Shown: positions 7,012-29,508 of the stretch, piece after piece
Numbering within the stretch: the stretch's first letter is position 1
How the letters are laid out: every line of letters begins with the position of its first letter
Source: Planctomycetota bacterium
Lineage (GTDB): Bacteria > Planctomycetota > SZUA-567 > H5-PLA8
Length of the DNA stretch: 29,508 nt
Assembly (NCBI GenBank): GCA_045863855.1
Contig: BTVV01000077.1
Coordinates: 1-29,508 of the forward strand
Direction of reading: 5' to 3'
The notes under the pieces: model-generated
Seen by the model: the letters and a program-made list of their open reading frames with translations, nothing else
What the model was told of the DNA's origin: nothing
The model's database searches: none
Made by a program: the position numbers and the translations under genes

Positions 7012-7080
7012 CGCCAAACCCTCGACCGCATCAGCGTACCACGCGGACCCGCCGGAAGCACTGGGCTCCCTCGGGACCGT

Positions 7081-8220
7081 TCACTCCTTGGGCGCATCGG
7101 CGCTCCAGCTCTTTTCCGGCTCCTTCGCGGGATCAACCACGCAGCCCCCCAGCGCCGGGAGCACCTGGATCGGACGCGGCTGCCCCCTGCGCGGCTCGAA
7201 ATAGCGGAACAGGTTGGCGCGCCCGCGCGGATTGATGTGCCACTCGGTGGTGCGCAGGTGCCACGACCAAATATCGAGCCGGTTGAGTTCCTGGCCCTTA
7301 AGCCCCGCTTCGTCGTGCTGCTCTTTGACGCGCCGCTGATGCACCAACACTTTCGCGGCCTCGCGGTGTCCGCGCACCGCGACTACGCCCTGCACGTCGA
7401 AGAAGTCGTCGAACTTGGCCAGCGTCGCGGCAATCGCCGCTTCGTCGCCGGCTTCGAGCGGACGCGCATCGGCCGCCGTCGCGGCTTGATCCGAAAGCCC
7501 GACCCAGATGCCACGGTCGGTCAGCAGCGCGACGTCGTAGCGGTCCGGCGGCAACCGTTCGATGCGGTACGTGCCCTGCGTGGCGTCGAGCACCTTGCCT
7601 TCGTACGCGCGCATCCTCTCGATCCCGTACGCCGCCACCTGCTGCAGCGCGCCAAAACCCTTCAGCGTGCCCGCCAGGACGCCGTTTCCCGCCTCCGGCG
7701 CGGCTTCGCCGCCGTCGAAAACGATCTCCTTCACGTACACCAGGTCCGCGGCCTTCTGCCCGACATCCCCTTGCATCTGGAATTTAAGGTGAAATTTCTG
7801 CTCTAAATAGTCCATCGGATTCTCGCCGTCCGGCGTGCGGATGTAGACAGGTTTGTTGAGCAAGTGCCCCTTGAGCGTCTGGCCGCTCAGCAGTTTCGCT
7901 TCGACGCCCAGATCCACCACCGGGTACTCACCCGGCAGGAACTCCTTCTCGTCGCTTCCGGCGTTCTTGAAGCGCCACGGCCGCTCGGTCGACTGCGTGC
8001 GGATAAAGAAGGTGAGCGACGCGAACTCCTCCAGCTTGACATTCACGAAGCGTCCGCCCGCCGCGCCTTCGCCCTCGTAAATCCGCGGCTCGCTGCCCTG
8101 GAACCAGATCTCGCCTTTGTGCTCCTGCCCATTGGAAAGCCGGATCACGCCCGCACGCCGTTCGGCGCCTTGCGCGAACGCGGCCAACAGCAGCAGAAGC
8201 ACCGACACTCGAACCTTCAC
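7081..8220 (-). CDS. Exported hypothetical protein, ~379 aa, with a possible carboxypeptidase-regulatory-like beta domain
   Basis: Only the 3' half of the 7081-9228 ORF looks like real protein. GTG 8220 follows AAGGAG, 17 nt after the previous stop. Signal peptide MKVRVSVLLLLLAAFAQG. Segment GVLAGTLKG...GTYRIERLPPDRYDV. Confidence 0.7.
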   Translation of the reverse strand: MKVRVSVLLLLLAAFAQGAERRAGVIRLSNGQEHKGEIWFQGSEPRIYEGEGAAGGRFVNVKLEEFASLTFFIRTQSTERPWRFKNAGSDEKEFLPGEYPVVDLGVEAKLLSGQTLKGHLLNKPVYIRTPDGENPMDYLEQKFHLKFQMQGDVGQKAADLVYVKEIVFDGGEAAPEAGNGVLAGTLKGFGALQQVAAYGIERMRAYEGKVLDATQGTYRIERLPPDRYDVALLTDRGIWVGLSDQAATAADARPLEAGDEAAIAATLAKFDDFFDVQGVVAVRGHREAAKVLVHQRRVKEQHDEAGLKGQELNRLDIWSWHLRTTEWHINPRGRANLFRYFEPRRGQPRPIQVLPALGGCVVDPAKEPEKSWSADAPKE

Positions 8221-8237
8221 GGACCCGCTCCTTGCGT

Positions 8238-10463: not shown

Positions 10464-12694
10464 TTCGCGGCCTCCTTGCGCGCAGACCGCGGCGCGGCCG
10501 GCCCCAGGTTCAGGCTCGACGGAGGCGAAGCGTTCGGCGGACCGCGCAAGGCCTCCGCTTCGCCCAGCGGCTTGCGCCGCCCGCCGGTCTGATTGGCCAG
10601 AAACGCCTCCGCCAGCAGCGCCAGCAGCGCGGCCAGAATCAACGCGCCGAACAGTTCGCGCCCGCTGCGCGTCTGCGCAAGCACCGCCGCGAGGTCCGCG
10701 TCCGCCCCGAGCACCTGCGCCCGCGCGAAACCCAGTGCCGCCAGCGCGTCGTCCGGCGCGAGGTAATCGGCGCCGCTCTCGGCGGGATCGGGCGTCACGG
10801 CAAAGCCCTGCGGAAAGGCGCCGTCCGCGCCTTCGGGCGGCTCGAGGCGGTAGACGCCGGCCTGCGCCGTCGCGCGCCAGACCAGCCGCGACTCGGCCAG
10901 CGCAACCGCGTGCCGCCGCTGCTTCGGATCGTGCAAGGCCAGCGCCGGCGGCAACGCCGCGCGCTTGGTGAACGGCGCGAGGTCCAGCGTCACCGGCAGG
11001 CCGGCCTTCGCCCGCAGCACCGGCGCTTCGGCGCCCGACAGCAACACGAGGCTGCGATGCAACAGCGCCAGGAATCCGGGCTGCAGCGGCAAGTTGGTGT
11101 CCTCGGCATGCGCGCTCAGCGCCCACATCTGCACGCGCCCCGCGCCCGCCGCGCGTTCGAGCAGCGCCGGGGCGCCGTTGGAGAATTCCGCCAGCACCGT
11201 CGCGCCCGGCGCGGGTTTCGCTTCGATCGCACGCAGCACCGCCACGCGGTCGAAAGGCACCCGCCCGTCGGCCGCGCGCACGTCGTCGAAGCACGCCGCC
11301 GCCGGACGCGTCACACGCAGCGTGTACGGTTCGCCCTGCGGCGGAACCTGCATCGGCGCCGCGGCCTGCGCCGGCAGCAGCCCATGCAACGGATGCTGCG
11401 CGCCAAGCTGAACGTCGCGCGCCCCGCCAAAATACAGCAGACCTCCGCCTTTGCGGACGTACGCATCCAGCGCGGCCAGCGCCTCCAGCGGCAGCGCCGT
11501 CGCCCCGCAGACCACCACCGCGTCGTACGCCTCCAGCCCCGCGCGCGGCGCCTGCTCCTGAGCCAGATACTCGACGCGCAGACCGCTCAACCGTCCGTCG
11601 CCGGTGGGGTCAAGCGCTTTACGTACGTAGAACGCTTCGTCGCGCTGCTCCTCGGTCTCGCCGCCGCGCGAAAGCACCAGCACCCGCAGCGGACCGCGCA
11701 CCTGCAGACAGAACGGCCACGCGTTGTCGAATGGCGCGTCGTCGGCATCGAGGGTCACCGTGCCCGAAGCGAAGCCCTCCGCGCCCAGCGTGAAGCGCAG
11801 CGGGACATCCAGCGTCTGGCCCGGCGGAACGGCGGCCGGAACGCTCACCGCCGGAGCGTCGCCCAGTTGCGCCGTGACCTGCGTGGTCAATTCTTCCTCG
11901 CCTGGATTGTGGACCTTGGCCACGAGCGTCAGCGCGCGCCCGGTCACCTTGGGGCGCGGATCGATGACCAGGTCGGCCAGCGCCAGATTGCGCCGCGGCG
12001 CGCCCGAAGGCGCGGGCGCCAGGAAAAGCGCCGTCGAATCCGGCAGCAGCGCCGCGGCCTTGCGCAGCGCTTCGGGATCGTCGAGCCCCGCGCGCTGCAA
12101 GTCGGTAAACAGGTACACTTCGCGGTTGGGCGCGCTCGACGTTTGCGCCAGCAGTTTGCCCGCGCGCGCCAGCGCTCCGGCCAGCCGTCCCGCGCCGGCC
12201 GCCGGTTCGATCGCATGCAGCGTCGCGCGCAGTTTGGCCAGATCCGCCGTGAAGGCCGGCGCTTCCGCGCCTTCTTCGCCGCCGACGAGCGTCAATACCG
12301 CCGCGCGGCTCTCGGGGCTCAACGTCTCCAGCACCGCCGCCGCGCGCGTCCGCGCCGCTTCGAGGCGCGTCCCCGCGGGCGTGGGCAGGCTCATCGACGC
12401 GCTGTTGTCCAGAATCAGCACGCAGTCCGCCGCCGCGCCCAGGCTTTGCGCGCCCTGCTGCGTGAAGCCCGGCCGCGCCAGCGCCAGCGCGACGCACGCG
12501 ATCGCCAGCACGCGCAACAAGAGGAGCAGCAATTCCTTGAGCTTGCGCCGGCTCGCGAGCTTCATGTCCACGCGCCGCAGGAACATCAGCGTCGGAAATT
12601 CCACCGCCGTCCGCTTGCGCCTGAAGATCAGGTGCACCAGCACCGGCGTCGCGGCCGCGGCGAGCGCCCAGAGGAATGCGGGGTTCGCGAACAC
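10460..12694 (-). CDS. BatA (aerotolerance N-terminal) domain + vWA + GATase-like membrane protein, 744 aa
   Basis: N-terminus FANPAFLWALAAAATPVLVHLIFRRKRTAVEFPTLMFL is the BatA/double-TM signature. MIDAS DNSASM and FTD, LDAYVRKGGGLLYFGG, and a C-terminal TM. Confidence 0.88.
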   Translation of the reverse strand: MFANPAFLWALAAAATPVLVHLIFRRKRTAVEFPTLMFLRRVDMKLASRRKLKELLLLLLRVLAIACVALALARPGFTQQGAQSLGAAADCVLILDNSASMSLPTPAGTRLEAARTRAAAVLETLSPESRAAVLTLVGGEEGAEAPAFTADLAKLRATLHAIEPAAGAGRLAGALARAGKLLAQTSSAPNREVYLFTDLQRAGLDDPEALRKAAALLPDSTALFLAPAPSGAPRRNLALADLVIDPRPKVTGRALTLVAKVHNPGEEELTTQVTAQLGDAPAVSVPAAVPPGQTLDVPLRFTLGAEGFASGTVTLDADDAPFDNAWPFCLQVRGPLRVLVLSRGGETEEQRDEAFYVRKALDPTGDGRLSGLRVEYLAQEQAPRAGLEAYDAVVVCGATALPLEALAALDAYVRKGGGLLYFGGARDVQLGAQHPLHGLLPAQAAAPMQVPPQGEPYTLRVTRPAAACFDDVRAADGRVPFDRVAVLRAIEAKPAPGATVLAEFSNGAPALLERAAGAGRVQMWALSAHAEDTNLPLQPGFLALLHRSLVLLSGAEAPVLRAKAGLPVTLDLAPFTKRAALPPALALHDPKQRRHAVALAESRLVWRATAQAGVYRLEPPEGADGAFPQGFAVTPDPAESGADYLAPDDALAALGFARAQVLGADADLAAVLAQTRSGRELFGALILAALLALLAEAFLANQTGGRRKPLGEAEALRGPPNASPPSSLNLGPAAPRSARKEAAK

Positions 12695-12695
12695 G

Positions 12696-13595
12696 TTAGC
12701 GGCTCATCCGCCGCACCAGGTACGCCGCGAGCGCGCGGTCGAACGGACCGGCCGTGTTGAGCACGTGGTAATCGATCCGCGCGTCGCCGCAGATGCGCCG
12801 CCAGTGCGCGATGAACTCGCGCACGCTCTCCTGCACCGCGTCCCGCACCAGCTCCGCCTCCACTTCCATCCGCTCGCCCGTCTCGAGGTCGCGAAAATCG
12901 ATCAGCCCGCGGTACGGGAAATTCAGCTCCGCGTCGTCGAGCAGATGCAGCAGGATCACCTCATGCCGGCGGTGCCGCAGATGCCGCAGCCCGGCCGCGA
13001 TGCGCTGCGGATCGTCGAACAGATCGGTCAGCAAGATCACGAGGCTGCGCCGCGGCAGGCGCTCGGCCAGTTCGTGGTAAATCGACGCCAGGTCGCTCTG
13101 CCCGCCCGGCTTCAGCGCATCGAGATGCAGCAGATTCTCGCGCATCGCGATCGCGCTCGTGCGCGGCGGAAAGAACGTATCGATCTTCGATGCGTGCGTG
13201 ACCAGCCCGATCGCGTCCTGCTGACGGTGCAGCATCGCCACCAGCGCCGCCGCGCAATAACAGCCGAACTGAAACTTGGTGATCGGACTCCCGGATTTGA
13301 AGTCGAGCGACTTGCTCGCGTCGAGCACCACCGTCGCGCGCAGATTCGTTTCCTGCTCGTACTGCCGGATCACCAGCCGGTCGTTGCGCCCATAGATCGT
13401 CCAGTCGATGTGCCGGATCGGATCGCCCGGAACGTATTCGCGGTATTCCGCGAACTCCACCGAAAAGCCGTGATGCGGCGATTTGTGCAGCCCGGCGATG
13501 AACCCTTCGACGATCCCCTGCGCCAACAGTTCGAGATTGGCGAATTTGCTCACCGTTTCGGGCGTTAAATACGTGTACTTCGTCGCTTCTGGCAT
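12696..13595 (-). CDS. DUF58 domain protein (MoxR-associated, vWA-like), 299 aa
   Basis: GLHKSPHHGFSVEFAEYREYVPGDPIRHIDW...IRQYEQETN...VLDASKSL is the DUF58 signature; lies directly downstream of moxR. Confidence 0.93.
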   Translation of the reverse strand: MPEATKYTYLTPETVSKFANLELLAQGIVEGFIAGLHKSPHHGFSVEFAEYREYVPGDPIRHIDWTIYGRNDRLVIRQYEQETNLRATVVLDASKSLDFKSGSPITKFQFGCYCAAALVAMLHRQQDAIGLVTHASKIDTFFPPRTSAIAMRENLLHLDALKPGGQSDLASIYHELAERLPRRSLVILLTDLFDDPQRIAAGLRHLRHRRHEVILLHLLDDAELNFPYRGLIDFRDLETGERMEVEAELVRDAVQESVREFIAHWRRICGDARIDYHVLNTAGPFDRALAAYLVRRMSR

Positions 13596-13621
13596 CGGTC
13601 ACCCGGTCTTCGGCGCGCGCG

Positions 13622-14689
<1,068 letters not shown>

Positions 14690-14715
14690 CGCGGGCTCCT
14701 TGGTGCTGTGCGAAC

Positions 14716-16242
14716 TCAATGCGTCATGGCGTAGACGACGATATTGACGCCCAGCCGCAGCGCGTCCGCGCACAGATATCCCTTCGCCTGCGGATGCTCG
14801 TCGCCCTGCCAGCCCCCGCCCAGATCGTAGGGGCTGTAGATCACGCGCAGGTCGCCGTCGAGCTGGATCGCTTCCAGCACCGGCGCCTCCAGCTTCGGCT
14901 CCAGGCGCTGCACCGCCGGCGTGTACGAAACTTTTTGAATCGCATAGCGCGTGGCGAACAACTCGTGCGCCGGATCGATGCGCTGCAAGGCCGCCGACGG
15001 AAACACTTTCTTCAACTCGCGCCTCACGGCCTTATCGAAAAGCTGCAAGCCCTGTGCGTTGTCGATCAATAGCGTCCCGCCGCGCTGAAGGAAACCCTGC
15101 AACGCCCGGACCTCCGCCTCGTCCAACGTGAAATCGTAGCACCCGCTCAGATACAGGAACTGCGTGTCGTCCAGGCCGTCGGCGCCCAGCTTGACCGCCT
15201 GCCGCCGGAAGACCACCTTGGTCTGCGTCTCCGTCGCGAGCGTCCGCAGCAGATTCCCGGGGCCGCCCGGATCGGTGTTCCACACGCCCCCGTGGCGCAC
15301 CTGCGCGAAGACGAACTCGTCCGTCTGCGTGCGCCCTTCGGCCAAACCGAACAGCTCCGGGCGCGCGTGCGCGATGCCCACGCGCTGGTAGCCCACCGCG
15401 TACGCCACCAGATTCAAGCCCAGCAAATTCGCGTCGCGGACGCTGTAAAACATCGCGTGCGGGATGCGGCTGTCGGGCGTGAAGTCGTCCCAGCCGCAGC
15501 CCAGCCCGAACTTGCTCACCACCACGCCCACGCGGCAGCCCACGTAAAGCCCTTCCAACTGCGGAAGCTCCGTCCCCGCCGCCGCGGGAAGCTGAACCTT
15601 CTCCACGTCGGTGATCATGTGGTACACCGGATGGTCGAGCGGCACCGGGCGCAGCGTCTCTTCGGGAAACGCTTTCTTGAGCGTCTGCACCGCCCCTTCG
15701 TAAAAGAACGGGCTTCCCGCCACCGAATCGAACCAGATCATGCCGCCGGCGAGCACGTACTTGCGCAGCAGTTGAATCTGCTCGTCCGGCAGGCGTAGCG
15801 TCCGCCCGCCGCTCAGGAACAGCACCGGCATCTCCGCCGGATCGCCGCTGAAAGTGTTGAGATTCACCGTGTCGTGCTTGTAGCGCAGCTTTAGGTGCTG
15901 GCCTGCTTTGCGTAAGAGCTGCTGCAAGTCAGCCGGCGCGAGGTTCCAGTCCGCGATGCGGTGCTTGCTCCCGTCCTCTTCGACGAAATCGGCTTCTGCG
16001 CCCCACACCACTTTCCCGATCAGCGTCGGCGGCGCGGGCTCGCGCTTCCGCTCGCTCCGCCGCAGCGGCGTCGCCGGAAGCGGCAGCGGCGGCACGGCCT
16101 CACCGCCCTTGATCCGCTTCTGGTTCGCCTCGGGCGGCTTGCCCAACGGCTTGAAGTAATCGTTCTCGTCCAGCGCGCACGCGGCCCCCGCGTGCAGCAG
16201 CACGGCGATCAGCGCGGCGGTGCGAAGCATCGGCATGGCCAT
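14716..16242 (-). CDS. Exported protein with two tandem DUF4159 domains, 508 aa
   Basis: Signal peptide LRTAALIAVLLHAGAACA. Two homologous units: PVLFLSG...LRKYVLAGGMIWFD...PLDHPVY...GLGCGW...LGLNLVAYA and QFLYLSG...LQGFLQRGGTLLID...DPAHELF...DLGGGW...LGVNIVVYAMTH. Confidence 0.88.
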   Translation of the reverse strand: MAMPMLRTAALIAVLLHAGAACALDENDYFKPLGKPPEANQKRIKGGEAVPPLPLPATPLRRSERKREPAPPTLIGKVVWGAEADFVEEDGSKHRIADWNLAPADLQQLLRKAGQHLKLRYKHDTVNLNTFSGDPAEMPVLFLSGGRTLRLPDEQIQLLRKYVLAGGMIWFDSVAGSPFFYEGAVQTLKKAFPEETLRPVPLDHPVYHMITDVEKVQLPAAAGTELPQLEGLYVGCRVGVVVSKFGLGCGWDDFTPDSRIPHAMFYSVRDANLLGLNLVAYAVGYQRVGIAHARPELFGLAEGRTQTDEFVFAQVRHGGVWNTDPGGPGNLLRTLATETQTKVVFRRQAVKLGADGLDDTQFLYLSGCYDFTLDEAEVRALQGFLQRGGTLLIDNAQGLQLFDKAVRRELKKVFPSAALQRIDPAHELFATRYAIQKVSYTPAVQRLEPKLEAPVLEAIQLDGDLRVIYSPYDLGGGWQGDEHPQAKGYLCADALRLGVNIVVYAMTH

Positions 16243-16265
16243 ACCCTCACGGACAGCCTAATCGA

Positions 16266-18344
16266 TCACGGTTCCAGTTGCCGCCTCGCCAGCGCGGTTT
16301 CGGCGGCGTACGGGAACGATTTCTTCAGCGTCGCGTAGCAGGCCTGCGCGCGCTCCTTCTGAGCCAATCCCAGGTACGCGTGGATCAGCTTGTACAGCAT
16401 CTCCGGCTGCTGCCCGCTCGCCGGATTCATCGCGCGCAACCGCTCCAGCAGCACCGCCGCGCGCGGATAGTCCTTCATCCCCAGCAGGCACTCGGCCCGC
16501 AGCAAGCCCGTCTCGTCGGCCGCGCGCTCCAGCGGCGTCTCCCACTCGATCTCGTCGAGGATCTGCAGCGCGGCCTCGAAATCGCCGGCCCGAAGGTAAC
16601 TCCCCGCGCTCACCAGCCGCCCGCGCCGCCGCGCCGCGTACGCGCGGTCGGTCAGCGGCGCCGCGCGCAGCGCTTCGTACGCCGCATGCGCATCCTCGCG
16701 CCGGCCCAGCCCCGCCAGCGCGTCGGCCCCGTAAATCCGCTTCAGCACCGGTTCGTGCGCCTGCGTGAGATCCTGATCGCCGATCTGCGCCAGCAACGGC
16801 AGCGCCTCCGCCGGACGGCCGGCCACGTGAATCAAAAGCCCCGCCAGATGCAGCTTCACGCGCGCGAGGAACGCCGCGTCGCCCGGTCCGGCCGCCGCCG
16901 CCCGCAGCGCCCGCTCGGCGCCGCCGTAATCCCGCGCCGGACCCTGCAGCGCCCGGCCCAGCCCGTAAAAAATATTCGCGCGATCCGCTTCGGGAAGCTG
17001 CGCCTCCAGCTTCCACGCGATCGCGCCCACCGCCTTCAGCAACTCCGGGTCCTCCAGCTCCACCGCGTACACCAGCAGCGGGCGGACATCCAGCGGCTTC
17101 ACCGTCCCGTCTGCCAGCCGCTTGAGCGCCTGCGGCCGGTACTCGCCCCAAAGCTTGTCGTGCCATTCTTCGCGCTGCTGCCAGACCGGTTCGACCACCA
17201 CGCTTTGCGTGATCGGCGTCCACGTGCTGTCCTCGGCTTTGATTTCCACCTTGTACGTGCCGGGCGAAAGAAACAGATGCCGCCCCAGCGCCGCCTCGCC
17301 CTCCTTCTTGAGCACCGCGTGCGCGCCGTCCCCGAAAAGCCACGCGATCTGCCCCTTGAACGGAGCGCGGCATTCGAAGTTCATCCGCACCAGGAACTGC
17401 CCGTTCACCACGAGCTGATCGGCCGGCCACCATTGGAAGTCCAGCGTCGGGCGCCCGTCGGAACGCTCCATTGCCAGAGCTTGCCCGCGCGCCAGCGGCA
17501 CGAACGCTTCGGGCGGCATCAGCGCGAAATACTTCTCGCCCGGCTTGCGCCACGCCGCGATCGTCGCCGTGCCGCCGCCGCCCTGCGCGTGCCAGTATTC
17601 CAGCTTATGCGCGCCCTTCGTCAGCCGCACCACCCCGTGGCCTTCGCCGATGCGCCGCTCGGCACCGTGCCAGCCGGGGTACTCCGAAAGCTTGCGCCCG
17701 TCGACGAACAGAAACGATGCGTCGTCGCTGTTCGTGGCGAAGCCGTATTCGCCGTCGGCCGGCGCATTGAAAAAGGCTCGGTACTTGCTCAAGAATTGTT
17801 CGCTTGGGCCCAGCGGGTTGAAGCCGTCGAAAACCGCCGCGCGCAGGATGCGACCCTGGACCGTCGTCGAACTCTTCCAGAGCTGCTGGTACTGCTCCCA
17901 CGTATCAGCGTTGCCTTCGCCTTTCGAGCGCACCTCCAGCACCACGCCCGCCTCGGCCGTCCAGGCTTTCGGCGGCGGCGCACGCGCGCCGGAATTGCCA
18001 AAATAGATGAAGAATACTCGCCCGGGGCGTACGTCCTGCACGGGGAACAGAATCTCCGCCGCGTCTCCGGGCCCGAAGCGGAGGAGTTCGAAGTCTAGGA
18101 GGTTGCCTTCGCCATCGGTCAAACGTAGATCACGGGCGTTTTCGGCGAATAGCCCCAAATGGGCAAAGCGCACGAACGCGGCCGCCGCGCCCGAAGGCGT
18201 GTCGCTTAGCACCACCGGACGGCGATACGCCCAACCCGGAAGCGACCAAGCTTCACCCGCTCCGGACACGCCAGTAAGCAGCAAGGTGAAGGCCACGCCA
18301 GATAGCCATTGAGGTCTGTGCATTAGGTTCCCGAAGTGTGCCAC
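16266..18344 (-). CDS. Exported multidomain protein: DUF2341-like, PA14-like, PKD-like, C-terminal TPRs; 692 aa (alternative ATG at 18323)
   Basis: Signal peptide; WAYRRPV...DLRLTD...IYFGN (DUF2341-like); APADGEYGFATNSDDASFLFVDG...GAHKLEYWHAQGGG (PA14-like); WLFGDG...PGTYKV (PKD-like); TPR helices ending YATLKKSFPYAAETALARRQL. Confidence 0.8.
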   Translation of the reverse strand: MAHFGNLMHRPQWLSGVAFTLLLTGVSGAGEAWSLPGWAYRRPVVLSDTPSGAAAAFVRFAHLGLFAENARDLRLTDGEGNLLDFELLRFGPGDAAEILFPVQDVRPGRVFFIYFGNSGARAPPPKAWTAEAGVVLEVRSKGEGNADTWEQYQQLWKSSTTVQGRILRAAVFDGFNPLGPSEQFLSKYRAFFNAPADGEYGFATNSDDASFLFVDGRKLSEYPGWHGAERRIGEGHGVVRLTKGAHKLEYWHAQGGGGTATIAAWRKPGEKYFALMPPEAFVPLARGQALAMERSDGRPTLDFQWWPADQLVVNGQFLVRMNFECRAPFKGQIAWLFGDGAHAVLKKEGEAALGRHLFLSPGTYKVEIKAEDSTWTPITQSVVVEPVWQQREEWHDKLWGEYRPQALKRLADGTVKPLDVRPLLVYAVELEDPELLKAVGAIAWKLEAQLPEADRANIFYGLGRALQGPARDYGGAERALRAAAAGPGDAAFLARVKLHLAGLLIHVAGRPAEALPLLAQIGDQDLTQAHEPVLKRIYGADALAGLGRREDAHAAYEALRAAPLTDRAYAARRRGRLVSAGSYLRAGDFEAALQILDEIEWETPLERAADETGLLRAECLLGMKDYPRAAVLLERLRAMNPASGQQPEMLYKLIHAYLGLAQKERAQACYATLKKSFPYAAETALARRQLEP

Positions 18345-18662: not shown

Positions 18663-19754
18663 TCATGGCTCGGCGACTCGCGAACGGGCGGTAGTCAGAA
18701 ACAGCCTTTGCGCCAAGATCCAAGCCCCTGCCGCCAAACCGATTCCCGCTACGCCGTCCGCCAGGTAATGCCAACCGGTCACGCAAGAACCCAGCAGCAT
18801 GAGCAGAACGTAGACCCACGCGCACCACACGACCCAGGTTCTGCTCTTCGCCAAAAAGAGCGCATATAGCGCAACCAATCCCACGTGCAGGGAAGGAAAG
18901 GCTGACATGCCTTCGTACATAAATACTCGATACTCTTCCGGGCTAGCGAGATACTCGTTGTAGCCGCGCCATACCGTCTCCTGAATCTTCCGCGCGACAG
19001 GCATATTTAGGCTTTCGAAAATTTCCGGGTTCACGAATACGGGCCCCAAGCTAGGCCAGACAAGCACCACCAGGATATGGGAGATCCACATCAGCAGAAA
19101 TGCGAAAAGAAAAGCCTGAGCATTGCGACGGTTCGACGCGAGAAGAAAGTATGTCACCAGCGGTAACTTAACGAAGTACCATGATACGTACAGCAGATCA
19201 AAAAACCGAGCTACCGTAGGAACGGCGAGAAGGCTCGACCGAGCCAACCCCGCTACTGGATCCATTCCCATGCCCAGTCCGCGATCCAGCCGGGCGAAGG
19301 CACCATCATATACTCGTGGGTTGACTGCGGGTACACGCTGCTGTAGGTTTGTGTGAATTACGGTAACTGCGTGAATGAGGACAATCGCAACAGATAACTC
19401 CAGTACCATTCTACCTATTGAGAATTTCGCTGTAGCGATTCGCGTCACTTCCGGCAGCGAGCGATTCGAGCGCTCCTCCCGCTTTAGCCGAAGATCCTCG
19501 CGCACGACAAGAAAGGCCAGATACATTAGACTCCAAAAGATTATCGTTCCCGCATATACTGCCAAACAAGAGGGAGCGAAAGCAGGAGAGAGTTCCAAGC
19601 GGAAACCCGCGCAGCATGCGATTCCGAAGGCACCGAGCGCGAAGAGAAACGCAAGGACCGCCGATGGAAGCATGTACCACGGCCACCTGCGCCAATACCT
19701 AGCCGAAAGAACCTTGGCGGATGGCGTGGTCGGATTACACCCTCCATCGATCAC
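18663..19754 (-). CDS. PAP2-superfamily membrane protein of Aur1/Ipt1 (PAP2_3, inositolphosphotransferase-like) type, up to 363 aa; start uncertain
   Basis: Polytopic. YDGAFARLD, WPSLGP, SAFPSLHVG (C2 His) and GWHYLADG (C3 His/Asp). Lacks the KxxxxxxRP C1 motif of plain phosphatases, as in Aur1/Ipt1-type proteins. Confidence 0.85.
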   Translation of the reverse strand: MIDGGCNPTTPSAKVLSARYWRRWPWYMLPSAVLAFLFALGAFGIACCAGFRLELSPAFAPSCLAVYAGTIIFWSLMYLAFLVVREDLRLKREERSNRSLPEVTRIATAKFSIGRMVLELSVAIVLIHAVTVIHTNLQQRVPAVNPRVYDGAFARLDRGLGMGMDPVAGLARSSLLAVPTVARFFDLLYVSWYFVKLPLVTYFLLASNRRNAQAFLFAFLLMWISHILVVLVWPSLGPVFVNPEIFESLNMPVARKIQETVWRGYNEYLASPEEYRVFMYEGMSAFPSLHVGLVALYALFLAKSRTWVVWCAWVYVLLMLLGSCVTGWHYLADGVAGIGLAAGAWILAQRLFLTTARSRVAEP

Positions 19755-19810
19755 GGCCCGCTCGAATAGATTCGCGGCCGAAACCGGTCCAGGGAGATGG
19801 AGCGCAGGGA

Positions 19811-21358
19811 GTGGATATTCACGAAGGTCATACCTTGCCCGGTTGGCTCGTGATCATTCTGCGGTCGCGCGTCTGGGCTCCGATTTGCATGGCCTACTTC
19901 GTGACCCTGCTTTGCTGGGGGGCCTTCGCACCGCCCGGCCTTTACGAGCGCGATGGCTATTACCATGCGCGGTACGCGCAGATTCTTCCGGAGCGAGGAC
20001 TTTCTCGGACGTTTCCCTGGACGCAAAGTAGCACTTGGCGGGATAATTTTTGCGACAAGGAATTCTTGTTTCACGTGCTGCTTATCCCCTTTTGTCGCAA
20101 TCAGGAGGATCCTGTCCAAGGCGCAAAAATATTTGCCGTGGCACTGGCTACCGTCGTTCTGATTGCGCAATATGCACTATTGCGATTACATCATGCGCCA
20201 TATCCTCTAGCCTGTACACTTATATTCGTAAGTCTAAGCGCTACGGTTTTGCATCGCTTGGGCATGATCCGTTCCCATGTGCTCAGTATTCTCCTTTTTC
20301 AAGCCGGCCTGCATTTTCTCCTGACCAACCGATGGAAGTCGATCGCGGCGCTCGGTTTCCTCTACTCGTGGAGCTACACGTTCCCGTGGGTGCTGCCTCT
20401 GACCACGGCGGTCTTTTCGCTAGCCAAGGGACTGGCGCGCGGCGGATGGTGTGCTCGGCCGCCATTGGCAGCGCTGGCCGGCGTGGCGGCAGGTTCGATC
20501 CTCCACCCGTACTTTCCTGGGACGGTGGAAAACCTGCTGACCTACCTCCAGGTGATAGACCTCAGCGCCACAAATCCGGTTCAGTCTGGCGTGACCTTGG
20601 GGGGCGAGCTATATCCTCTCTCCATGAGCGAATTCTTGATTACTTTTCCGCTGCTCATTCTCGTGTCAACTGGCTTCGGCTGGGCCGTTTTACGACTCCA
20701 AAACTGTCTTGCACGAGAAAGCACAGCCATGATCGGCGTCGCATGGCTGTGGTTCGTTGGCTGTTGGTGGATGCCACGCATGATCGAATACGCGGCCCCC
20801 GCAGCCGGACTAGCGGCGGGACTATTGCTACGCGACTTGCGGCCAAAATCGTACTTACCGGCCATGGAGGCCGGTCCGCGACGCGCGCGCTTCTTGATGG
20901 GCCTCGGCGCGGTCATGGTGCTTCTGGCGGCGGCACATTCAAGCGCCATTCATACTTTCATCGCGACTGCTGGAGAAGCGCCCGCCCGTCGCTTCTCCGG
21001 TGCCGCTAGGTGGATGAAAGAGAACCTGAAACCTGGTGAGACGGTCATGAACTTGTGGTGGGACGACTTCCCGGAGCTCTTTTACGACGCGCCCGAATTC
21101 CGCTACCTCTGCGGATTGGATCCGACGTACATGCTGCGATGGGACGAGGCGAAGGCTCTTGGGCTGGAGGCAATGCGCGCACGGAAGCGCGGGCTGGACG
21201 GCGCTTGGCTTGCGGACGCCTTCGGTTCGCGTCTGCTGATCGTGCGCCAGCCGAAAGCCGACGCCTACCCAGAGCTGAAGGTCGAGCCTTGGAAGTTGCT
21301 CTACCGCGACGACGCGGCGGCGCTTTACCGCTATGACGGTCCGGCGGCGGTGCCCTGA
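19811..21358 (+). CDS. Polytopic GT-C-fold putative glycosyltransferase with STT3/PglB/AglB-like motifs, ~515 aa
   Basis: Likely start GTG 19811, in frame with ORF 19721 and after a purine-rich GGAG/AGGGA tract; this avoids overlap with the divergent gene. ERDGYYHARYA follows TM1, about ten or more TMs follow, and the soluble C-domain begins WMKENLKPGETVMNLWWDDF. Confidence 0.7.
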   Translation: MDIHEGHTLPGWLVIILRSRVWAPICMAYFVTLLCWGAFAPPGLYERDGYYHARYAQILPERGLSRTFPWTQSSTWRDNFCDKEFLFHVLLIPFCRNQEDPVQGAKIFAVALATVVLIAQYALLRLHHAPYPLACTLIFVSLSATVLHRLGMIRSHVLSILLFQAGLHFLLTNRWKSIAALGFLYSWSYTFPWVLPLTTAVFSLAKGLARGGWCARPPLAALAGVAAGSILHPYFPGTVENLLTYLQVIDLSATNPVQSGVTLGGELYPLSMSEFLITFPLLILVSTGFGWAVLRLQNCLARESTAMIGVAWLWFVGCWWMPRMIEYAAPAAGLAAGLLLRDLRPKSYLPAMEAGPRRARFLMGLGAVMVLLAAAHSSAIHTFIATAGEAPARRFSGAARWMKENLKPGETVMNLWWDDFPELFYDAPEFRYLCGLDPTYMLRWDEAKALGLEAMRARKRGLDGAWLADAFGSRLLIVRQPKADAYPELKVEPWKLLYRDDAAALYRYDGPAAVP

Positions 21359-22362
21359 GGAAAGTAGAGCTTGCTGCGCAAATCCTCGCTGAGCGTTACG
21401 CGCCCTTCCAGCCGGCGCAGGCGGGCCTCGAAGTAGGCATACTCCTTGGTTTTGTCCTCGCTGAACCGATCCTGGAACATGGTCATGATGCGGCGGCAGC
21501 AGAAGGCTGCCTGTTCGACGTCGCCGATCCCCAGGGCTTGGTTGTAAGCGGCCACGTACTTCTTCAGTTGGAAGCGCAGGTGGTTCTGGCAACTGGTGAT
21601 GACCTCATCGGCCTTGTCCGCACGGAAGGGCTGCTTCAGCGCGTCAGTTTCGCCCCAGGCGTAGGCCTTAGCTCGTCGCATCTCCAGGATTGCCGAGAAG
21701 GCGTTGGCCGGGTCCAGCGTGATGTTTTCGAAGCTGCGCGTAGCGCGGCGGTAGTGGAGCAGGGCGAGGTCTCTATCGACAGGCGTGTCTTCCTCGAAGC
21801 TGCGTTCGGCCCAGTCCACAAAGTCACCTTTGCGAGGAAGCACCGACTTGGCGGCTTGGGTAACAAGGTCCGGTAGTTCGGTCTGAGTCTCAGGCGGGAA
21901 TGCGAGCACCACGCCCGCCACCACCGCCAGGACGACGGCGACCAGGATGAGATCGGGCGCCATCTCTTTCCAATTCGTGACGCGGGTGCCCCAGGATCGC
22001 TTGCGGACGAAGGTCAGCACCGTGCTGCCGATGCGGATGCGGTCGCCGGCGACCAGTGGATGCCCAGTCTGAAGTTGCTTCTCGTTCACGAAGGTGCCGC
22101 TGACGCTCTCGGAGTCGTACACCACGTACGTGTCGCCCTCGAACTGGAGGTACGCGTGCATGCGCGAGACTTGGATGTCGTTGGTCAGTACCACCGAAGC
22201 GCGTTCCGGATCGCTGCCGATGGTGATGCGAGCGCCGGCGAGCAGAATCTCGGCATTCGTCTGGAGCGACGGGCCTTTGAGCACGCGCAATAAGCACTGC
22301 GCTTCCGGAGACACGGCCGCCGAGGGATCGGCCAGGGGCGTATTCTGGACGGCGTCGGTCAT
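21331..22362 (-). CDS. FHA-domain bitopic membrane protein with a helical extracytoplasmic domain, ~343 aa
   Basis: ATG 22362 after GGAGGT. FHA pattern TIGS...QVSRMHA...DSESVSGTFVN...LVAGDRIRIG, then TM LILVAVVLAVVAGVVLAF and a helical/TPR-like C-terminus. Confidence 0.85.
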   Translation of the reverse strand: MTDAVQNTPLADPSAAVSPEAQCLLRVLKGPSLQTNAEILLAGARITIGSDPERASVVLTNDIQVSRMHAYLQFEGDTYVVYDSESVSGTFVNEKQLQTGHPLVAGDRIRIGSTVLTFVRKRSWGTRVTNWKEMAPDLILVAVVLAVVAGVVLAFPPETQTELPDLVTQAAKSVLPRKGDFVDWAERSFEEDTPVDRDLALLHYRRATRSFENITLDPANAFSAILEMRRAKAYAWGETDALKQPFRADKADEVITSCQNHLRFQLKKYVAAYNQALGIGDVEQAAFCCRRIMTMFQDRFSEDKTKEYAYFEARLRRLEGRVTLSEDLRSKLYFPQGTAAGPS

Positions 22363-22393
22363 GGACGTTGAACCTCCTGGCCGGTGATACCGG

Positions 22394-23284
22394 CTATCCA
22401 CCCAAAAGGGTCTGGTACATGCGAATGGCGATGGGGCCTAGAATTATCAGGAACATGCACGGGAAGACGAACAGAATCAGCGGAACAATCATCAGCGTGG
22501 CCGCCTTCTTGGCTTTCTCGCGAAGCTCCTGCATGCGTTTGTTCTTAATAAAGGCGCTCTGGTTTCGAAGCACCTCGACCAGCCCGGTGCCCATCTCGTC
22601 GGCGCGAATCAGCGCGCCGGTAAGGGCTGAGACTTCGGCCAGTGCGACGCGGCTCTTGAGCTTCAGTAGTGCTTCCTTGCGGCTGGCGCCTGCGCGGATG
22701 GCCGCCAGGATCAGGCGCAGTTCGTCGCGCAGAGGCCGCTCCGGAAATTGTTCGATGATGTTCTGGATTGCAAAAACGAAGTCGGCGCCTGCCTGTACGC
22801 TGAGCGTCAGCAGGTCCATCATGTAGGGTAAGTCCTTGCAGATGCTCTTCAAGCGCTTGGCTCGTGCGGCGCTCATGCGTGCGATCGGCACGTAGAATCC
22901 GAATAGGGCAATGGCGATGGCCATGGGGGGCGAAGGGTCGATGACGATCAGGTAGAGCGATCCGCAGAATACGGCCCAGCACTCCTGTGCCGCCAGGAAG
23001 GGCTCGAAGGAGTACTGCTCTTCCATGGCGCTTTCGCGAATCAGTTGGTCGATGTAGTTGCGGTAGCCAGGCACCGGCACGAAGGTGTTCACGTAGGCCA
23101 AGCGACTGAGCAATTCGAAGCGGAAGCGGGTCAGGCGCGACCGCGTTTGGGTGTCGCCGGCAGCGATGTCCTTGCGCTCGATGCTGAAGAAGATCCGCGT
23201 GAGCGCCATGACCATCAGGAAGATGGCCGCGAAGAGCAGCCAACTCGATCCGGCGTACAGCATTCCTTCCGAGGCGGCAGGCAT
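22394..23284 (-). CDS. tadC: Tad pilus inner-membrane platform protein TadC (T2SS F family), 296 aa
   Basis: DLPYMMDLLTLSVQAG...ADEMGTGLVEVLRNQS...EKAKKAATLMIVPLILFVFP; follows tadB. Confidence 0.92.
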   Translation of the reverse strand: MPAASEGMLYAGSSWLLFAAIFLMVMALTRIFFSIERKDIAAGDTQTRSRLTRFRFELLSRLAYVNTFVPVPGYRNYIDQLIRESAMEEQYSFEPFLAAQECWAVFCGSLYLIVIDPSPPMAIAIALFGFYVPIARMSAARAKRLKSICKDLPYMMDLLTLSVQAGADFVFAIQNIIEQFPERPLRDELRLILAAIRAGASRKEALLKLKSRVALAEVSALTGALIRADEMGTGLVEVLRNQSAFIKNKRMQELREKAKKAATLMIVPLILFVFPCMFLIILGPIAIRMYQTLLGG

Positions 23285-23287
23285 GCG

Positions 23288-24142
23288 TCAGTCCTCGATT
23301 TTCAGAAGTTCGTTGATCACGACGGCACCGATCAGTTCCAGCACGACGACGATCCCGATGATAAGGTTGCCGATCCAATGCGTGATGAGCGGCTCCATCA
23401 GGTCCGGGTTGATCAGGGCAAGGATGGCGGCGACGCCGAAGGGCATGGCGCCCATCATCATGCCCTGCAGCTTACCTTCGGCGGTCATCGCTCGCAATTC
23501 GCCGCGCAGTTCGATGTTGCGGCGGATGGTGTCGGCGATGGAGTCGCTCATCTCGGCCAAGTTGCCGCCGAGTTTGAGGCAGGTGCTCACGGCCGTGACG
23601 AACAGCTTGACCGATTCCAGCGGCACGCGGTCTGCCAGTTCGCGGAAGCCCTGCTCGGTGCGGCCCAATTGGATCTCGCGGCGCAGCATGCTGAATTCCT
23701 CGGATAGCGGTTCCTCCGATTCCTCGGCGATTTTGGAGACAGCCAGGGGAAGGGAGATGCCCGCTCGAAGCGTGCTGGACAGCAGCGACAGTGCTTCGGG
23801 GAACTGTTCCTCGAACTGGGCCAGGCGCTTGGCCTGCGCCCGGCGGCGGATGAAATAAGGCGTCACCATGCAAAGGGCGGCGAGCACCAGGCCCAGCAGG
23901 ACGCTGCCGAGGAATACCACGCAGAGTGTCGCGGAGAGGATCGCCAGCGCTGCTGAAAGGTGCATCTGCGCGCGCAGGCTGACGCCAATCAAGACGTTGC
24001 CGATCTGCTTGCGGGAGCGCGCCGAGAAGTAGGTTTCCTGCGACTCGCTGCGGAAATTGCCGACAGCCGATGCGGCAAGCCTCATCAGGGCGAACAGGCC
24101 CACCGCCGTCATAGCGTACATCCCCAACACCATGGTATCCAT
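23288..24142 (-). CDS. tadB: Tad pilus inner-membrane platform protein TadB (T2SS F family), 284 aa
   Basis: FEEQFPEALSLLSSTLRAGISL...EPLSEEF...GGNLAEM...ELRAMTAEGKLQG; directly follows the ATPase. Confidence 0.92.
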   Translation of the reverse strand: MDTMVLGMYAMTAVGLFALMRLAASAVGNFRSESQETYFSARSRKQIGNVLIGVSLRAQMHLSAALAILSATLCVVFLGSVLLGLVLAALCMVTPYFIRRRAQAKRLAQFEEQFPEALSLLSSTLRAGISLPLAVSKIAEESEEPLSEEFSMLRREIQLGRTEQGFRELADRVPLESVKLFVTAVSTCLKLGGNLAEMSDSIADTIRRNIELRGELRAMTAEGKLQGMMMGAMPFGVAAILALINPDLMEPLITHWIGNLIIGIVVVLELIGAVVINELLKIED

Positions 24143-24156
24143 GTTCGCTCCAGCCT

Positions 24157-26271
<2,115 letters not shown>

Positions 26272-26276
26272 GCCGG

Positions 26277-28538
26277 TTACTTCTTCATTTCCTTTTCATC
26301 CTTATCCGTATTCCGGTAAGGATTGCCCGGCACGTCGGGAAGGAGATGGATCATGTCCTCTATGCTGTGGGCAAGCTGGAAGTTTCCTAGCTGACCGTAC
26401 TGGGTGCGCAGGACGAAGAGTTTCTCCATCTGGAGCAGCGCCTCGTTGCGGATGGGGTCGTACAGGTCGAGAGCCGGCTTGGCCTCCTCGGGTGTGAGGA
26501 CCCGGGCGAGATCCTTGACCGGCGCGATTAGGGTGAAAGCGTCGGTCAGGAGCTTGGCCTTGGTACGGAAGGAATCGGGGATGCTCTTGGCCGCGGTGCG
26601 TTCCGAGGAGACGATCGGATCCGCCTTGTACTTGTCCCAGGCCACGCGCGCCTGCTGGACCCACCGTCCGGTCTCATCCTTGACCGTCTTCACAACCATA
26701 TTTTTCATGTCGGTCAGTTTCATGCGTAGGTCGGCGAACTCTTCGCCTTCGTACTCGACCACCAGCGTGTCGGCGGCCTTGATCACATCACCGTACTTGC
26801 AGGCCTTGAATGCGTTCTCCATGCCCTTGTAGTGGATGTTGAAGAACTGGCGGCGCAGGCTGCTGACCAGCGCCCCGGTCTGCTCGAAGTACCAGCCGTC
26901 GGCTTCCTTGTTGAGGTTGATCAGGAGCATGGTAGCTTCCTTGAGCAGGGCCATGTTGTTGGCTTTTGCCTTCATCTCCGTGAGATTGCTCCAGGCTGCG
27001 ACGATCTCCTTCACGTGCGCGCGCAGGACGATGGCCTTCTCAGTCTTGGCGTTCTTGAGCGCCTCCAGGGCCTCCGCGCCATTGCCGGCCAGGTACAGGC
27101 GCATGCCGACGCGGAAGTCGGCTTCTTGACGGATCTTGTCCAGCATCTTACCGGCTTCGGCCGCGTGGAAGTCGGTAGCGGCAACCTTCGAAAGTTCCTC
27201 GTTGGCCTTTTCGTAGTCTCCTTTATCGAAGGCTTGGGAGCCTTCGGCGAAAGCTTTGGCATTCTTCAGCAGATCGGCGGCATTGACGGGACCGGCAACG
27301 GCCGAGATCGATTCGGCGCTGCAGTCCACCAGTCGCGTAAGCGACTCGACTTCAAAGCCGACTTCGCCCACCTTGCGTGCGGTCTGGACGTCGTTCCACG
27401 CCTGTGTGGCGCGTTCCAACTGGTCCAAGATCTTACGCACGCGGTCTAGTTCGACTACGCAGCTCTGGTAGGCCTCCTCGACCTGGAGCAGTTCGCCCAG
27501 CACCGCTTCCTGCGCGCGGTATTTCTTGACGGCTTCCTGGAGGCTGGAAGCCAGTTCGCGGGCGCGGTCCTGGCTGATGGCGCCCTTGGCTTCGGCCGCC
27601 GACTTCTGGGTGGCCACGACGAAGGTTCCGCTGTAAGCCTGCTCGGAAAGCGCCAGGAAACGGTCTGAGGAGTTCTTGTACTTGTTCACCCCCGCCTGGG
27701 CGCGGCGGTAGGCCTCGGAGAGGTCACCCTTTACCTTGATCAGCGCCTCGATCTCGGCGTTTTCCTGCTCGGCTTCGATCCGCAACTTCCACTGCTTCAG
27801 CGTCTTGGCTCCCTCGTCGTCCAGGTTTTCCTTTTCAATCGAAGCGATGCGTTCCTTCAGGTCTTCGAGCTTGCCCTGCTTGAAGAGTACGTCGATCTCG
27901 CTCCAGTTCACCTCTACCGGCTTCGCCGCGAACATCGACGGCAGGACCAGTAGAGCCAGCAGGGCGACCGCGACGGCACCGAGCATCATCAGGAGCTTCT
28001 TGGAAAAACCGCGGCGCGAAGGCAAGATGATCTGGGCCGGTATGGGTACCTGCCGCGAAGGGGTGCCTAGCGACGCGGGCTGCGAGGCAACAGGCAAGAC
28101 CGGGACCGCGGCCTGCAGGGGATGGACCGGTTCGGACGAGGTCGCAGGCGCGGCGGGCGTGGGTGGCGACTCAACGGGCGGCACCTGCCCGATCAGCGTC
28201 TTCTCGAAGTCGGACGCGTTGCCGATCATAGTCTTCTCGAAATCGTCGGTGGGCTGGGCGTCGTCCTCGAAGGTGGCCTCGACGTTGCCGATCTTGATCT
28301 TGTCGCCAGCGCGCAGGGACCGGCGTGTCACCTTCTCGCCGTTCACCATGGTACCCACCGCGCCGCCCAGATCGTCCAGGACATAGGCGCCGCCCATCTT
28401 GGCGATGCGGACGTGCTTGCGGGAGACGGTGGGGTCGGTGAGCACAATCGTATTGCCCGGTTGCCGGCCAAGCGTTACTTCGCCAGCTACTACGACCTCC
28501 CTCGTCTGACCTGCATCGTTCAAAATCAGCTTAGCCAT
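26277..28538 (-). CDS. FHA-domain bitopic membrane protein with Pro-rich linker and large TPR-like helical extracytoplasmic region, 753 aa
   Basis: FHA TLGRQ...VSRKHV...DLGGAVGTMVNG...LRAGDKIKIG, Pro-rich linker, TM LLMMLGAVAVALLALLVL after RRGFSKK, TPR-like helices (FAEGSQAFDKGDYEKANEEL). Stops 5 nt before the tadA start. Confidence 0.88.
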   Translation of the reverse strand: MAKLILNDAGQTREVVVAGEVTLGRQPGNTIVLTDPTVSRKHVRIAKMGGAYVLDDLGGAVGTMVNGEKVTRRSLRAGDKIKIGNVEATFEDDAQPTDDFEKTMIGNASDFEKTLIGQVPPVESPPTPAAPATSSEPVHPLQAAVPVLPVASQPASLGTPSRQVPIPAQIILPSRRGFSKKLLMMLGAVAVALLALLVLPSMFAAKPVEVNWSEIDVLFKQGKLEDLKERIASIEKENLDDEGAKTLKQWKLRIEAEQENAEIEALIKVKGDLSEAYRRAQAGVNKYKNSSDRFLALSEQAYSGTFVVATQKSAAEAKGAISQDRARELASSLQEAVKKYRAQEAVLGELLQVEEAYQSCVVELDRVRKILDQLERATQAWNDVQTARKVGEVGFEVESLTRLVDCSAESISAVAGPVNAADLLKNAKAFAEGSQAFDKGDYEKANEELSKVAATDFHAAEAGKMLDKIRQEADFRVGMRLYLAGNGAEALEALKNAKTEKAIVLRAHVKEIVAAWSNLTEMKAKANNMALLKEATMLLINLNKEADGWYFEQTGALVSSLRRQFFNIHYKGMENAFKACKYGDVIKAADTLVVEYEGEEFADLRMKLTDMKNMVVKTVKDETGRWVQQARVAWDKYKADPIVSSERTAAKSIPDSFRTKAKLLTDAFTLIAPVKDLARVLTPEEAKPALDLYDPIRNEALLQMEKLFVLRTQYGQLGNFQLAHSIEDMIHLLPDVPGNPYRNTDKDEKEMKK
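28188..28244 (-). repeat. Two-copy coding repeat (33-nt period) encoding DFEKTMIG / DFEKTLIG
   Basis: Plus-strand copies gccgatcatagtcttctcgaaatc (28221-28244) and cccgatcagcgtcttctcgaagtc (28188-28211). Differences are mostly synonymous. Confidence 0.85.
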
Positions 28539-28998: not shown

Positions 28999-29508
28999 TC
29001 ATTCTTTTTCCCGACTCTGTCCGTAAAGCCAACTTTGCTGGAGCATACTTACAGCCTTCCCGAGCGGATTGACCACTGCAGACGCCCCTTCCCAACGCGA
29101 TTGAAAGAAGAGCCATGCGCATGCGCCGGCCACCACAGGCCGTTGCATCGCCGGAAGATCGAGCGTGAAGGGCACCTCGCAAAGCATCGGCTGAACCGAG
29201 AAGACTAGGGTAGCGCCAAGTTCAGTCTCCTTGGGAGTCGGCGCCCACAGACCCACGATTAAACTCCCGCGGCGCAGACGGTCCACGTCCATACCGCGCT
29301 CAGGGCCAGCGATGAAGACATTGGTCACGATCACGTCCGATTTCTCGGCCTGTGCCAACGCCCGCCAAACGTCGGGCCGGTTGAATTCGGTAAGCTTCTC
29401 GTTTTTCAAGGCCGGATGCGGAGGATAGGATTTGATTATGGCAGCGTACTTGGCGGACAAGTCAGCTTGGACGTACCGAGCCCATGAGTCCAGGTCCACG
29501 AGGGCAGC
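28999..29508 (-). CDS. Hypothetical protein, C-terminal part; 5'-truncated by the window edge
   Basis: The frame stays open from the window end (AALVDLDSWARYVQ...) to the stop at 28999 with protein-like composition. No family recognised. Confidence 0.55.
   Translation of the reverse strand, partial: AALVDLDSWARYVQADLSAKYAAIIKSYPPHPALKNEKLTEFNRPDVWRALAQAEKSDVIVTNVFIAGPERGMDVDRLRRGSLIVGLWAPTPKETELGATLVFSVQPMLCEVPFTLDLPAMQRPVVAGACAWLFFQSRWEGASAVVNPLGKAVSMLQQSWLYGQSREKE

Follow-up and report, generated by a model that had tools for sequence, protein, structure and literature searches.

The window analysed here, the 29,508-nt contig BTVV01000077.1 of a planctomycete (assembly GCA_045863855.1), contains five minus-strand genes, A to E. 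They make up the last third, at the 3' end, of a Tad (type IVc) pilus operon of 14 genes, which is severed at the contig end. The locus is a Tad system with a class III CpaF, i.e., a motor ATPase fused to FHA domains, and not a member of the Kil system in the strict sense. We lean, without strong assurance, towards the reading that the five genes provide motor, platform and regulatory parts at the end of an operon of the FHA/Kil branch of Tad, and that this operon would build a phosphorylation-gated, retractile attachment pilus whose motor is recruited by phosphothreonine docking and not by TadZ. This reading builds on the gene content, the intact ATPase motifs, the absence of TadZ/CpaE, the clade membership of the motor, its canonical first FHA domain (FHA1) and a conserved twin threonine (Thr) motif in A. 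The features in the window are:

26277..28538, minus strand: gene A, 753 aa, with an FHA domain, a Pro-rich linker carrying the Thr motif, a transmembrane (TM) helix and a periplasmic TPR-like solenoid
28188..28247, minus strand: twin Thr motif D-F-E-[KR]-T-[ML]-[IV]-G (T103 and T114), situated in the cytoplasmic part of the A linker; a candidate for kinase phosphorylation and for recognition by an FHA domain
24157..26271, minus strand: FHA-FHA-TadA/CpaF motor ATPase, 704 aa, with Walker A, Asp box, Walker B and His box intact
25996..26262, minus strand: motor FHA1, with R25, S39, H42 and N61 all retained in the residue audit
25489..25779, minus strand: motor FHA2, degenerate (Ser and Asn lost), lineage-specific
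23288..24142, minus strand: TadB, inner-membrane platform, 284 aa, Pfam T2SSF 1e-16
22394..23284, minus strand: TadC, inner-membrane platform, 296 aa, Pfam T2SSF 6e-17
21331..22362, minus strand: gene E, 343 aa, with a degenerate FHA domain (Pfam FHA), a TM helix and helical hairpins
28999..29508, minus strand: 3' half of a predicted lipoprotein of ~340 aa, the last gene upstream of A, severed at the contig end

The initial annotation, made from the sequence alone, had described five co-oriented genes with gaps of 5, 14, 3 and 31 nt and four FHA domains in three proteins. The coordinates of the open reading frames and the gaps from A to E were identical in our analysis, the last gap being measured from the start of E at ATG 22362, which an AGGAGG precedes (a start at GTG 22401, which gives the longest frame, would bring an 8-nt overlap with tadC). 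Pfam returned the same four domains (from A to E: FHA; FHA, FHA and T2SSE; T2SSF; T2SSF; FHA). The genes are real, but the operon extends further than the five: the window ends inside the upstream gene, and eight more lie beyond. We refer to the genome of the window as G000, to the window as C77, to another contig of G000 as C226, and to a stretch of genome G002 as L124. In G002, which is of the same genus and 99% identical, the locus continues past the end point of C77 and gives the rest of the operon; C226 matches the next 5.6 kb of the G002 locus, and the ends of C77 and C226 overlap by 6 nt. The gene order in G002 is a 173-aa orphan, cpaB, a BON-BON-secretin gene, flp, prepilin peptidase, tadE, a tadG-like gene (854 aa), a tadE-like gene, the lipoprotein gene, A, FHA-FHA-tadA, tadB, tadC and E. 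Together with the CpaF/TadA ATPase, TadB and TadC, this makes up a Tad pilus: Flp, prepilin peptidase, TadE/G minor pilins, CpaB and secretin were recognised by Pfam in the G002 orthologues, Flp at 30.6 bits, slightly below its cut-off of 32.2. The genes from flp through tadE are also present on C226. Full-length double-FHA motors occur in four of the 17 genomes of the family, G000 among them, and cpaB scores above the cut-off in three of the 17 (G001, G002 and G007). The lipoprotein family is rare, with five representatives in the 50% library. A scan for promoters and terminators gave signal at chance level.

The host belongs to the Planctomycetota, as the PVC (Planctomycetes-Verrucomicrobia-Chlamydiae) look of the neighbouring genes had led the initial annotation to expect. 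The PVC signature protein was found (70.6 bits for a cut-off of 50), FtsZ was not found in the genome (94% complete), and in the RpoB tree, read without three rows whose reading frames were wrong (Myxococcales, Kiritimatiellia and G001), the host groups among Planctomycetota with its own class. An anammox (Brocadiales) host was considered and rejected: the hydrazine synthase alpha domain is in none of five genomes (G000 and four of the same class).

The motor carries a T2SSE domain (Pfam 4.7e-65), with ATPase motifs intact at residues 483, 510, 551, 572 and 581, and its closest solved relative is CpaF 9e24 (E 7e-115). It is the sole match at E 1e-60 in G000. As in class III CpaF, an N-terminal FHA domain and a disordered linker precede the CpaF core, with one extra FHA domain. 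Two FHA domains on the motor were seen in only three of 244 distinct ATPases, all of this lineage, and a word-index search with residues 155-340 gave two proteins among 1213 candidates. No match covering 80% of FHA plus ATPase was found in the plasmid collection.

Trees of the ATPase domain unite the motor with the FHA-fused ATPases of Planctomycetota, Lentisphaeria, Kiritimatiellia, Myxococcota and gamma-class bacteria and with the TadZA motors of Bdellovibrionota. This clade received support of 99/97 with 56 rows chosen from 194, 100/97 with 73 rows, and an SH-aLRT (approximate likelihood ratio test) value of 93 with 60 rows under a mixture model. Approximately unbiased (AU) tests rejected joining the motor with classical CpaF (p 0.019), placing it with the single-FHA motors of its own class (p 0.016), and, as a borderline case, placing it inside the Myxococcota KilF group (p 0.036), from which it was a separate branch in all three trees; all three rejections are modest. 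The grouping anticipated by the initial annotation, with FHA-fused or Kil-type motors and away from classical CpaF, was recovered, and the trees place the motor on a separate deep branch of the clade, outside the KilF subclade. Gamma-class FHA-CpaF is nearer to KilF than the planctomycete motor is (73-row and mixture-model trees). We do not claim a sister relation to the Lentisphaeria/Kiritimatiellia motors, which had 91/92 in the 73-row tree, was open in the 56-row tree and was lost under the mixture model. Elsewhere in the clade, the Moraxella bovis plasmid NZ_CP087831.1 (L279:6240-18010) encodes a Tad locus with FHA-CpaF, directly after which come tadE and an RHS-core gene; here a Kil-clade motor neighbours a gene of the polymorphic-toxin type.

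The canonical Tad arrangement, a separate TadZ/CpaE beside an unfused ATPase, was not found at the planctomycete locus. Neither the locus nor G000 contains TadZ/CpaE: the best match of the CpaE profile scored 105 bits and lies inside a flagellar cluster, whereas members scored 163-464. The initial annotation had already remarked on this lack. It had also placed FHA-TM genes on both sides of the motor and platform genes, and such company turned out to be common. We surveyed synteny in loci of at least 9 kb, leaving out duplicates, training loci and any second ATPase below 48% identity; the CpaE profile recovered 21 of 21 held-out CpaE, and kin among the loci are not independent. A separate CpaE occurred in none of 61 FHA-TadA loci vs 28 of 39 plain-TadA loci, and an additional FHA gene in 48 of 61 vs one of 39. 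TadZ was fused in seven loci. The usual order in PVC bacteria is cpaB, FHA-tadA, tadB, tadC, small FHA-TM gene, large FHA-TM gene; the planctomycete locus departs from it, with the large FHA-TM gene ahead of the motor and the secretin within the operon. In a divergent planctomycete subtype (L129, L131, L134, L227, L228), the locus contains an FHA-TadA of ~620 aa, an FHA-TM gene of 270-330 aa and another ATPase, which is short. A KilD-like gene accompanies five of nine gamma-class FHA-CpaF loci (L338-L340, L342, L343), where this FHA-TM-TPR gene follows tadC.

We audited the FHA domains at the Arg, Ser, His and Asn positions that we take, from known FHA domains, to bind phosphothreonine. Motor FHA1 is the only one in the locus with all four residues, and is canonical in three of three orthologues. 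The other three domains lack at least one of them, in three of three orthologues each: A is without Asn, E without Arg and Asn, and FHA2 without Ser and Asn. A candidate ligand lies in the linker of A, where E[KR]T[ML][IV]G occurs twice in three of three orthologues, including one that is 61-63% identical overall, and survives where other linker sequence has diverged. The motif was not significant in the linkers of KilD, of MXAN_4648/4649 or of Lentisphaeria. The genome has 88 kinase-domain matches. Clustering through an FHA domain, a linker and phosphothreonine has a precedent in Rv1747 (PMC11326607).

Genes A and E each encode one TM helix after the FHA domain, and TM prediction and structure models agree with their initial description as FHA-TM-TPR-like and FHA-TM-helical. 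In A, the FHA domain spans residues 21-84 (Pfam), the TM helix is at 178, and the periplasmic part was modelled as all-helical (mean predicted local distance difference test, pLDDT, 76.8; predicted template modelling score 0.49), with weak matches to TPR proteins and no Foldseek match at E 0.001. The model of E (pLDDT 68.8) has an FHA fold (matches to GarA/OdhI, E 5e-10), a TM helix and helical hairpins. A look-up in the protein atlas gave no match at 0.9 for A or TadG. Profile E-values were computed at Z=100, with reversed controls at 0.004 or weaker for the large and small planctomycete profiles. The large-family profile (14 planctomycete proteins) matched the periplasmic part of A at 4.8e-13, its reversed control not being scored, 4648-type proteins at 1e-22 and KilD-type proteins at 6e-18. 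The small-family profile (16 proteins) matched E at 3.8e-07 (reversed 0.79) and 4649-type proteins at 9e-14. Direct links were weak: KilD to A 0.008, 4649 to E 0.5 and 4648 to A 5.3. The Kil likeness initially proposed for these genes therefore holds through intermediate families and not through direct profile links. By this transitive route, A is a distant member of the large FHA-TM family (KilD/MXAN_4648-like), and E a shortened, distant member of the small one (MXAN_4649-like), whose typical linker and beta-domain are missing from E in the alignment. TadC is 34% identical over 292 aa to the gene at the kilH position of a Myxococcus-like genome, the closed 8.97-Mb Myxococcota genome G168, which has both kil clusters in the published order and served as a stand-in for Myxococcus.

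The A-E block has its own history. Genome G007 belongs to another genus (RpoB 82%; 42 background proteins with a median of 51% and a maximum of 79%), and is 92-97.5% identical over A-E and 96% in TadG; its TadE2 is 84% identical (tblastn). G001, of the same genus (RpoB 88%), is 61-86% identical over A-E. Identity at four-fold sites between G002 and G007 is 76-86% in A-E and 85% in tadG, vs 45-58% in seven other operon genes and 58.5% in rpoB. Since the flanking genes on the same G007 contig are at 66-78%, misbinning does not explain the identity of A-E. By these comparisons, the A-E block was exchanged laterally between the two genera, recently and as a unit, along with tadG.

Five RNA runs from two studies (wastewater and bioreactor) hold 70-75% of the words. 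RNA-library contigs ~99% identical to the window cover A-E; they start at 21012-21150, and 9.6-21 kb is covered by short patches only. Upstream, the RNA contigs end at L124:8011-8029, ~190 nt before the first gene, where contig depth drops from 39-62 to 1-3, and one contig of 13,992 nt spans the C77/C226 junction. Together, these contigs hint weakly at a single transcription unit of 16-17 kb.

According to the mechanism that we propose, a Ser/Thr kinase encoded elsewhere would phosphorylate A at T103/T114. The motor, as a hexamer with six FHA1 domains, could then bind the phospho-sites on clustered A, which would place it beneath TadB/TadC, while the degenerate FHA domains (motor FHA2, A and E) might offer docking surfaces that need no phosphorylation. 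The helical domains that A and E have in the periplasm may couple the complex to CpaB and the secretin, or sense envelope contact, and the lineage-specific His/Cys-rich TadG tip would set the binding target, be it particles, biofilm or other cells.

Several observations weigh against phosphothreonine docking. The FHA wiring is not general, because the pattern is reversed in other planctomycete loci: the four residues are complete in none of 17 motor FHAs (15 with Arg-to-Lys) and in 12 of 13 small-protein FHAs. The Thr motif was seen six times vs 0.15 expected from shuffles, for a pattern defined post hoc, and the three orthologues that carry it are kin. At +3 the motif has Gly, a position at which a hydrophobic or acidic residue is usual in FHA ligands. 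No kinase gene lies within the operon, among the genes examined in G002 and the contigs of G000, and the motif is not enriched around the kinases of the genome, so we rejected it as a genome-wide kinase signature. The exclusion between CpaE and FHA genes may stem from one ancestral event, cpaB was not found in the assembly of the host, which breaks inside the secretin gene, and the RNA contigs, with coverage from four runs, give neither strand nor level and have no DNA run beside them. We grant a limited but appreciable chance to another reading, an adhesion Tad pilus whose FHA domains serve as a scaffold without any need for phosphorylation (as SctD-type FHAs do), with A and E taking the structural place of TadZ/TadD and the Thr repeat being coincidental. 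The incomplete FHA domains, the match of all four to the YscD cytoplasmic-domain model, the kinase-free operon and the lack of enrichment near kinases speak for such a scaffold, but motor FHA1 keeps its four residues in every orthologue and the twin motif has outlasted the divergence of the linker. DNA uptake or another non-adhesive task, or an idle remnant, seems very improbable. DNA uptake is among the named functions of Tad systems (PMC12075869) and the presence of the motor in the family is patchy, as counted above; yet all frames are intact, protein identity is far above four-fold-site identity, RNA contigs cover the operon, and no competence gene lies beside it.

The initial annotation had seen in the locus a candidate machine for predation or contact killing, taking the association of FHA and Tad as the hallmark of Kil. 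Kil is described as restricted to predatory delta-proteobacteria (PMC8460266); its parts include KilF, an FHA-ATPase, KilD, an FHA-TPR protein needed for killing, the FHA-TPR protein MXAN_4648, the FHA protein MXAN_4649, and KilC with BON domains. We consider it unlikely that the planctomycete operon is a functional counterpart, i.e., a contact-assembled pilus that kills or antagonises neighbouring bacteria. It does share the part list (FHA-ATPase, BON-secretin, two FHA-TM-helical proteins, no TadZ), although the periplasmic homology is transitive, and a relative of the family of A, KilD, is required for killing. Moreover, a related ATPase was present in each of the 61 Bdellovibrionota-phylum genomes searched, and the tip and motor block has been swapped between genera, as conflict systems often are. 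However, the ATPase stands outside the KilF group, with gammaproteobacterial FHA-CpaF nearer to it, and A and E match KilD and MXAN_4649 only weakly when the profiles are compared directly. The published table assigns 17 rows to class III CpaF, all of Beta-/Gammaproteobacteria or Acidithiobacillia and including non-predators such as Bordetella and Cupriavidus, and none of its 18 Planctomycetota rows (PMC12019362); FHA with Tad is therefore no predictor of predation. The correlates of predation that we examined point the same way. An SctV-type T3SS* (the needle-less type III secretion partner of Kil, confined to Cystobacterineae) was not found: G000 and G002 have one FHIPEP gene each, inside a flagellar cluster, and G001 and G007 none. 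The cluster in G000 (C60:8700-31700) looks complete, with flagellar gene names that we presume from motifs read by eye; flhA was found in G000 and G002, but in neither G001 nor G007. TadG (L124:935-3496; C226 1774-4338) aligns with the tadG-like gene of Myxococcus-like cluster 2, the one tip compared, over its first 71 aa only. It has seven relatives among 7877 candidates, and its conserved His/Cys-rich segment (~345-430) and Ala/Gln-rich helical hairpin (~434-505) make a metal-binding adhesin possible. No recognisable toxin family was found among the 14 operon genes, and ilvD, not found in G168, is above the cut-off in four of four carriers. To our knowledge, the killing effectors are not known even for Myxococcus. 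None of the correlates (T3SS*, tip, toxin, ilvD) supports killing. A bolder variant, which strikes us as decidedly doubtful, is a rewired Kil-type pilus whose double-FHA motor would read the twin phosphothreonine tag on a TPR membrane sensor, assemble at cell contacts and kill or parasitise without T3SS*, motor module and tip being traded as conflict modules.

The surroundings of the operon are partly conserved. At its 3' end, converging on it and overlapping gene E by 28 nt, lie a PAP2-family gene and the gene of a 545-aa multi-TM protein without family (18663-21358). The pair stays beside the operon in G001, G002 and G007; the multi-TM protein presumably resembles a GT-C glycosyltransferase, going by motifs, and pilin glycosylation is possible. 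On the minus strand, 2799-18344 holds a cluster of MoxR AAA+, DUF58 and BatA-vWA genes, a double-DUF4159 protein, a PA14-TPR protein and large membrane proteins without family; the MoxR/DUF58/BatA-vWA cluster adjoins the operon in G002 and was not seen in the stretches fetched for G001 and G007. A lower-GC stretch on the plus strand (70-2599) encodes a flavin-dependent halogenase-like oxidoreductase and, by the COX1 model, a fragment of a cytochrome oxidase/NO-reductase subunit I. In G002, an XRE-S24 (LexA/CI-like) regulator (L124:8438-9295) lies upstream of the operon; the corresponding position in G007 showed none, and G001 gave a distant HTH match only.

The role of the FHA proteins is presented as an open question in the Kil papers. 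The planctomycete locus is a pared-down natural version of that arrangement, with one operon, one fully canonical FHA reader and one candidate ligand (T103/T114 of A); with a single reader and a single ligand, FHA-phosphothreonine docking in place of TadZ becomes testable by peptide binding. The Kil-like architecture is a broad branch of Tad in PVC bacteria and some Gammaproteobacteria, which makes it unfit as a genomic marker of predation. The initial annotation's undescribed variant in an unexpected lineage is thus half right: the lineage is PVC, but the cassette is common in Planctomycetota and the Lentisphaeria/Kiritimatiellia group. A literature search, with most subscription journals outside it, returned no description of FHA-Tad in PVC bacteria, although Supplementary Data 1 of PMC12075869 (hits of hidden Markov models of kil genes in 47 phyla) may list planctomycetes.

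Compared with the Tad/Cpa systems of Caulobacter and Aggregatibacter, the locus has the same Flp, peptidase, CpaB, secretin, CpaF, TadB, TadC and TadE/G, whereas theirs have an unfused ATPase of another clade, a separate TadZ/CpaE, a pilotin TadD and no FHA proteins. Bdellovibrio bacteriovorus TadZA (bioRxiv 10.64898/2026.07.08.737194) is of the same ATPase clade, with a positioning module fused to the N-terminus of the motor and FHA genes near the locus; its module is a ParA/MinD-like TadZ domain in place of FHAs, and it is polar and RomR-dependent. Class III CpaF, with an FHA domain and an intrinsically disordered region (Yen et al. 2025, PMC12019362), shares the N-terminal FHA, the disordered linker and the CpaF core, and its gamma-class members belong to the same clade, but the planctomycete motor has a second FHA between linker and ATPase. 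The Kil system of Myxococcus xanthus (Seef et al. 2021, PMC8460266; Herrou et al. 2025, PMC12075869) has in common with the locus an FHA-fused CpaF, a BON-containing secretin, no TadZ, a TadE/TadG/TadE tip set, TadB and TadC followed by an FHA-TM gene (as in kilG-kilH-MXAN_4649), and a large FHA-TM-TPR partner adjoining the ATPase (as kilD). It differs in having two clusters for one operon. The planctomycete motor has two FHAs, and both accessory FHA-TM proteins have degenerate FHAs where those of the KilD, 4648 and 4649 orthologues are mostly canonical in the residue audit; the secretin of the locus is without the Pfam pilus-formation N-terminal domain, its tip body is unrelated, T3SS* is absent, the ATPase stands outside the KilF group, and the host is a planctomycete. 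FHA-CpaF as such is already known from publications (class III; KilF), though the literature searched has no case from Planctomycetota; the tandem-FHA motor, the canonical residues of motor FHA1 alone, the twin Thr motif in A and the exchange of A-E with tadG are specific to the planctomycete lineage.

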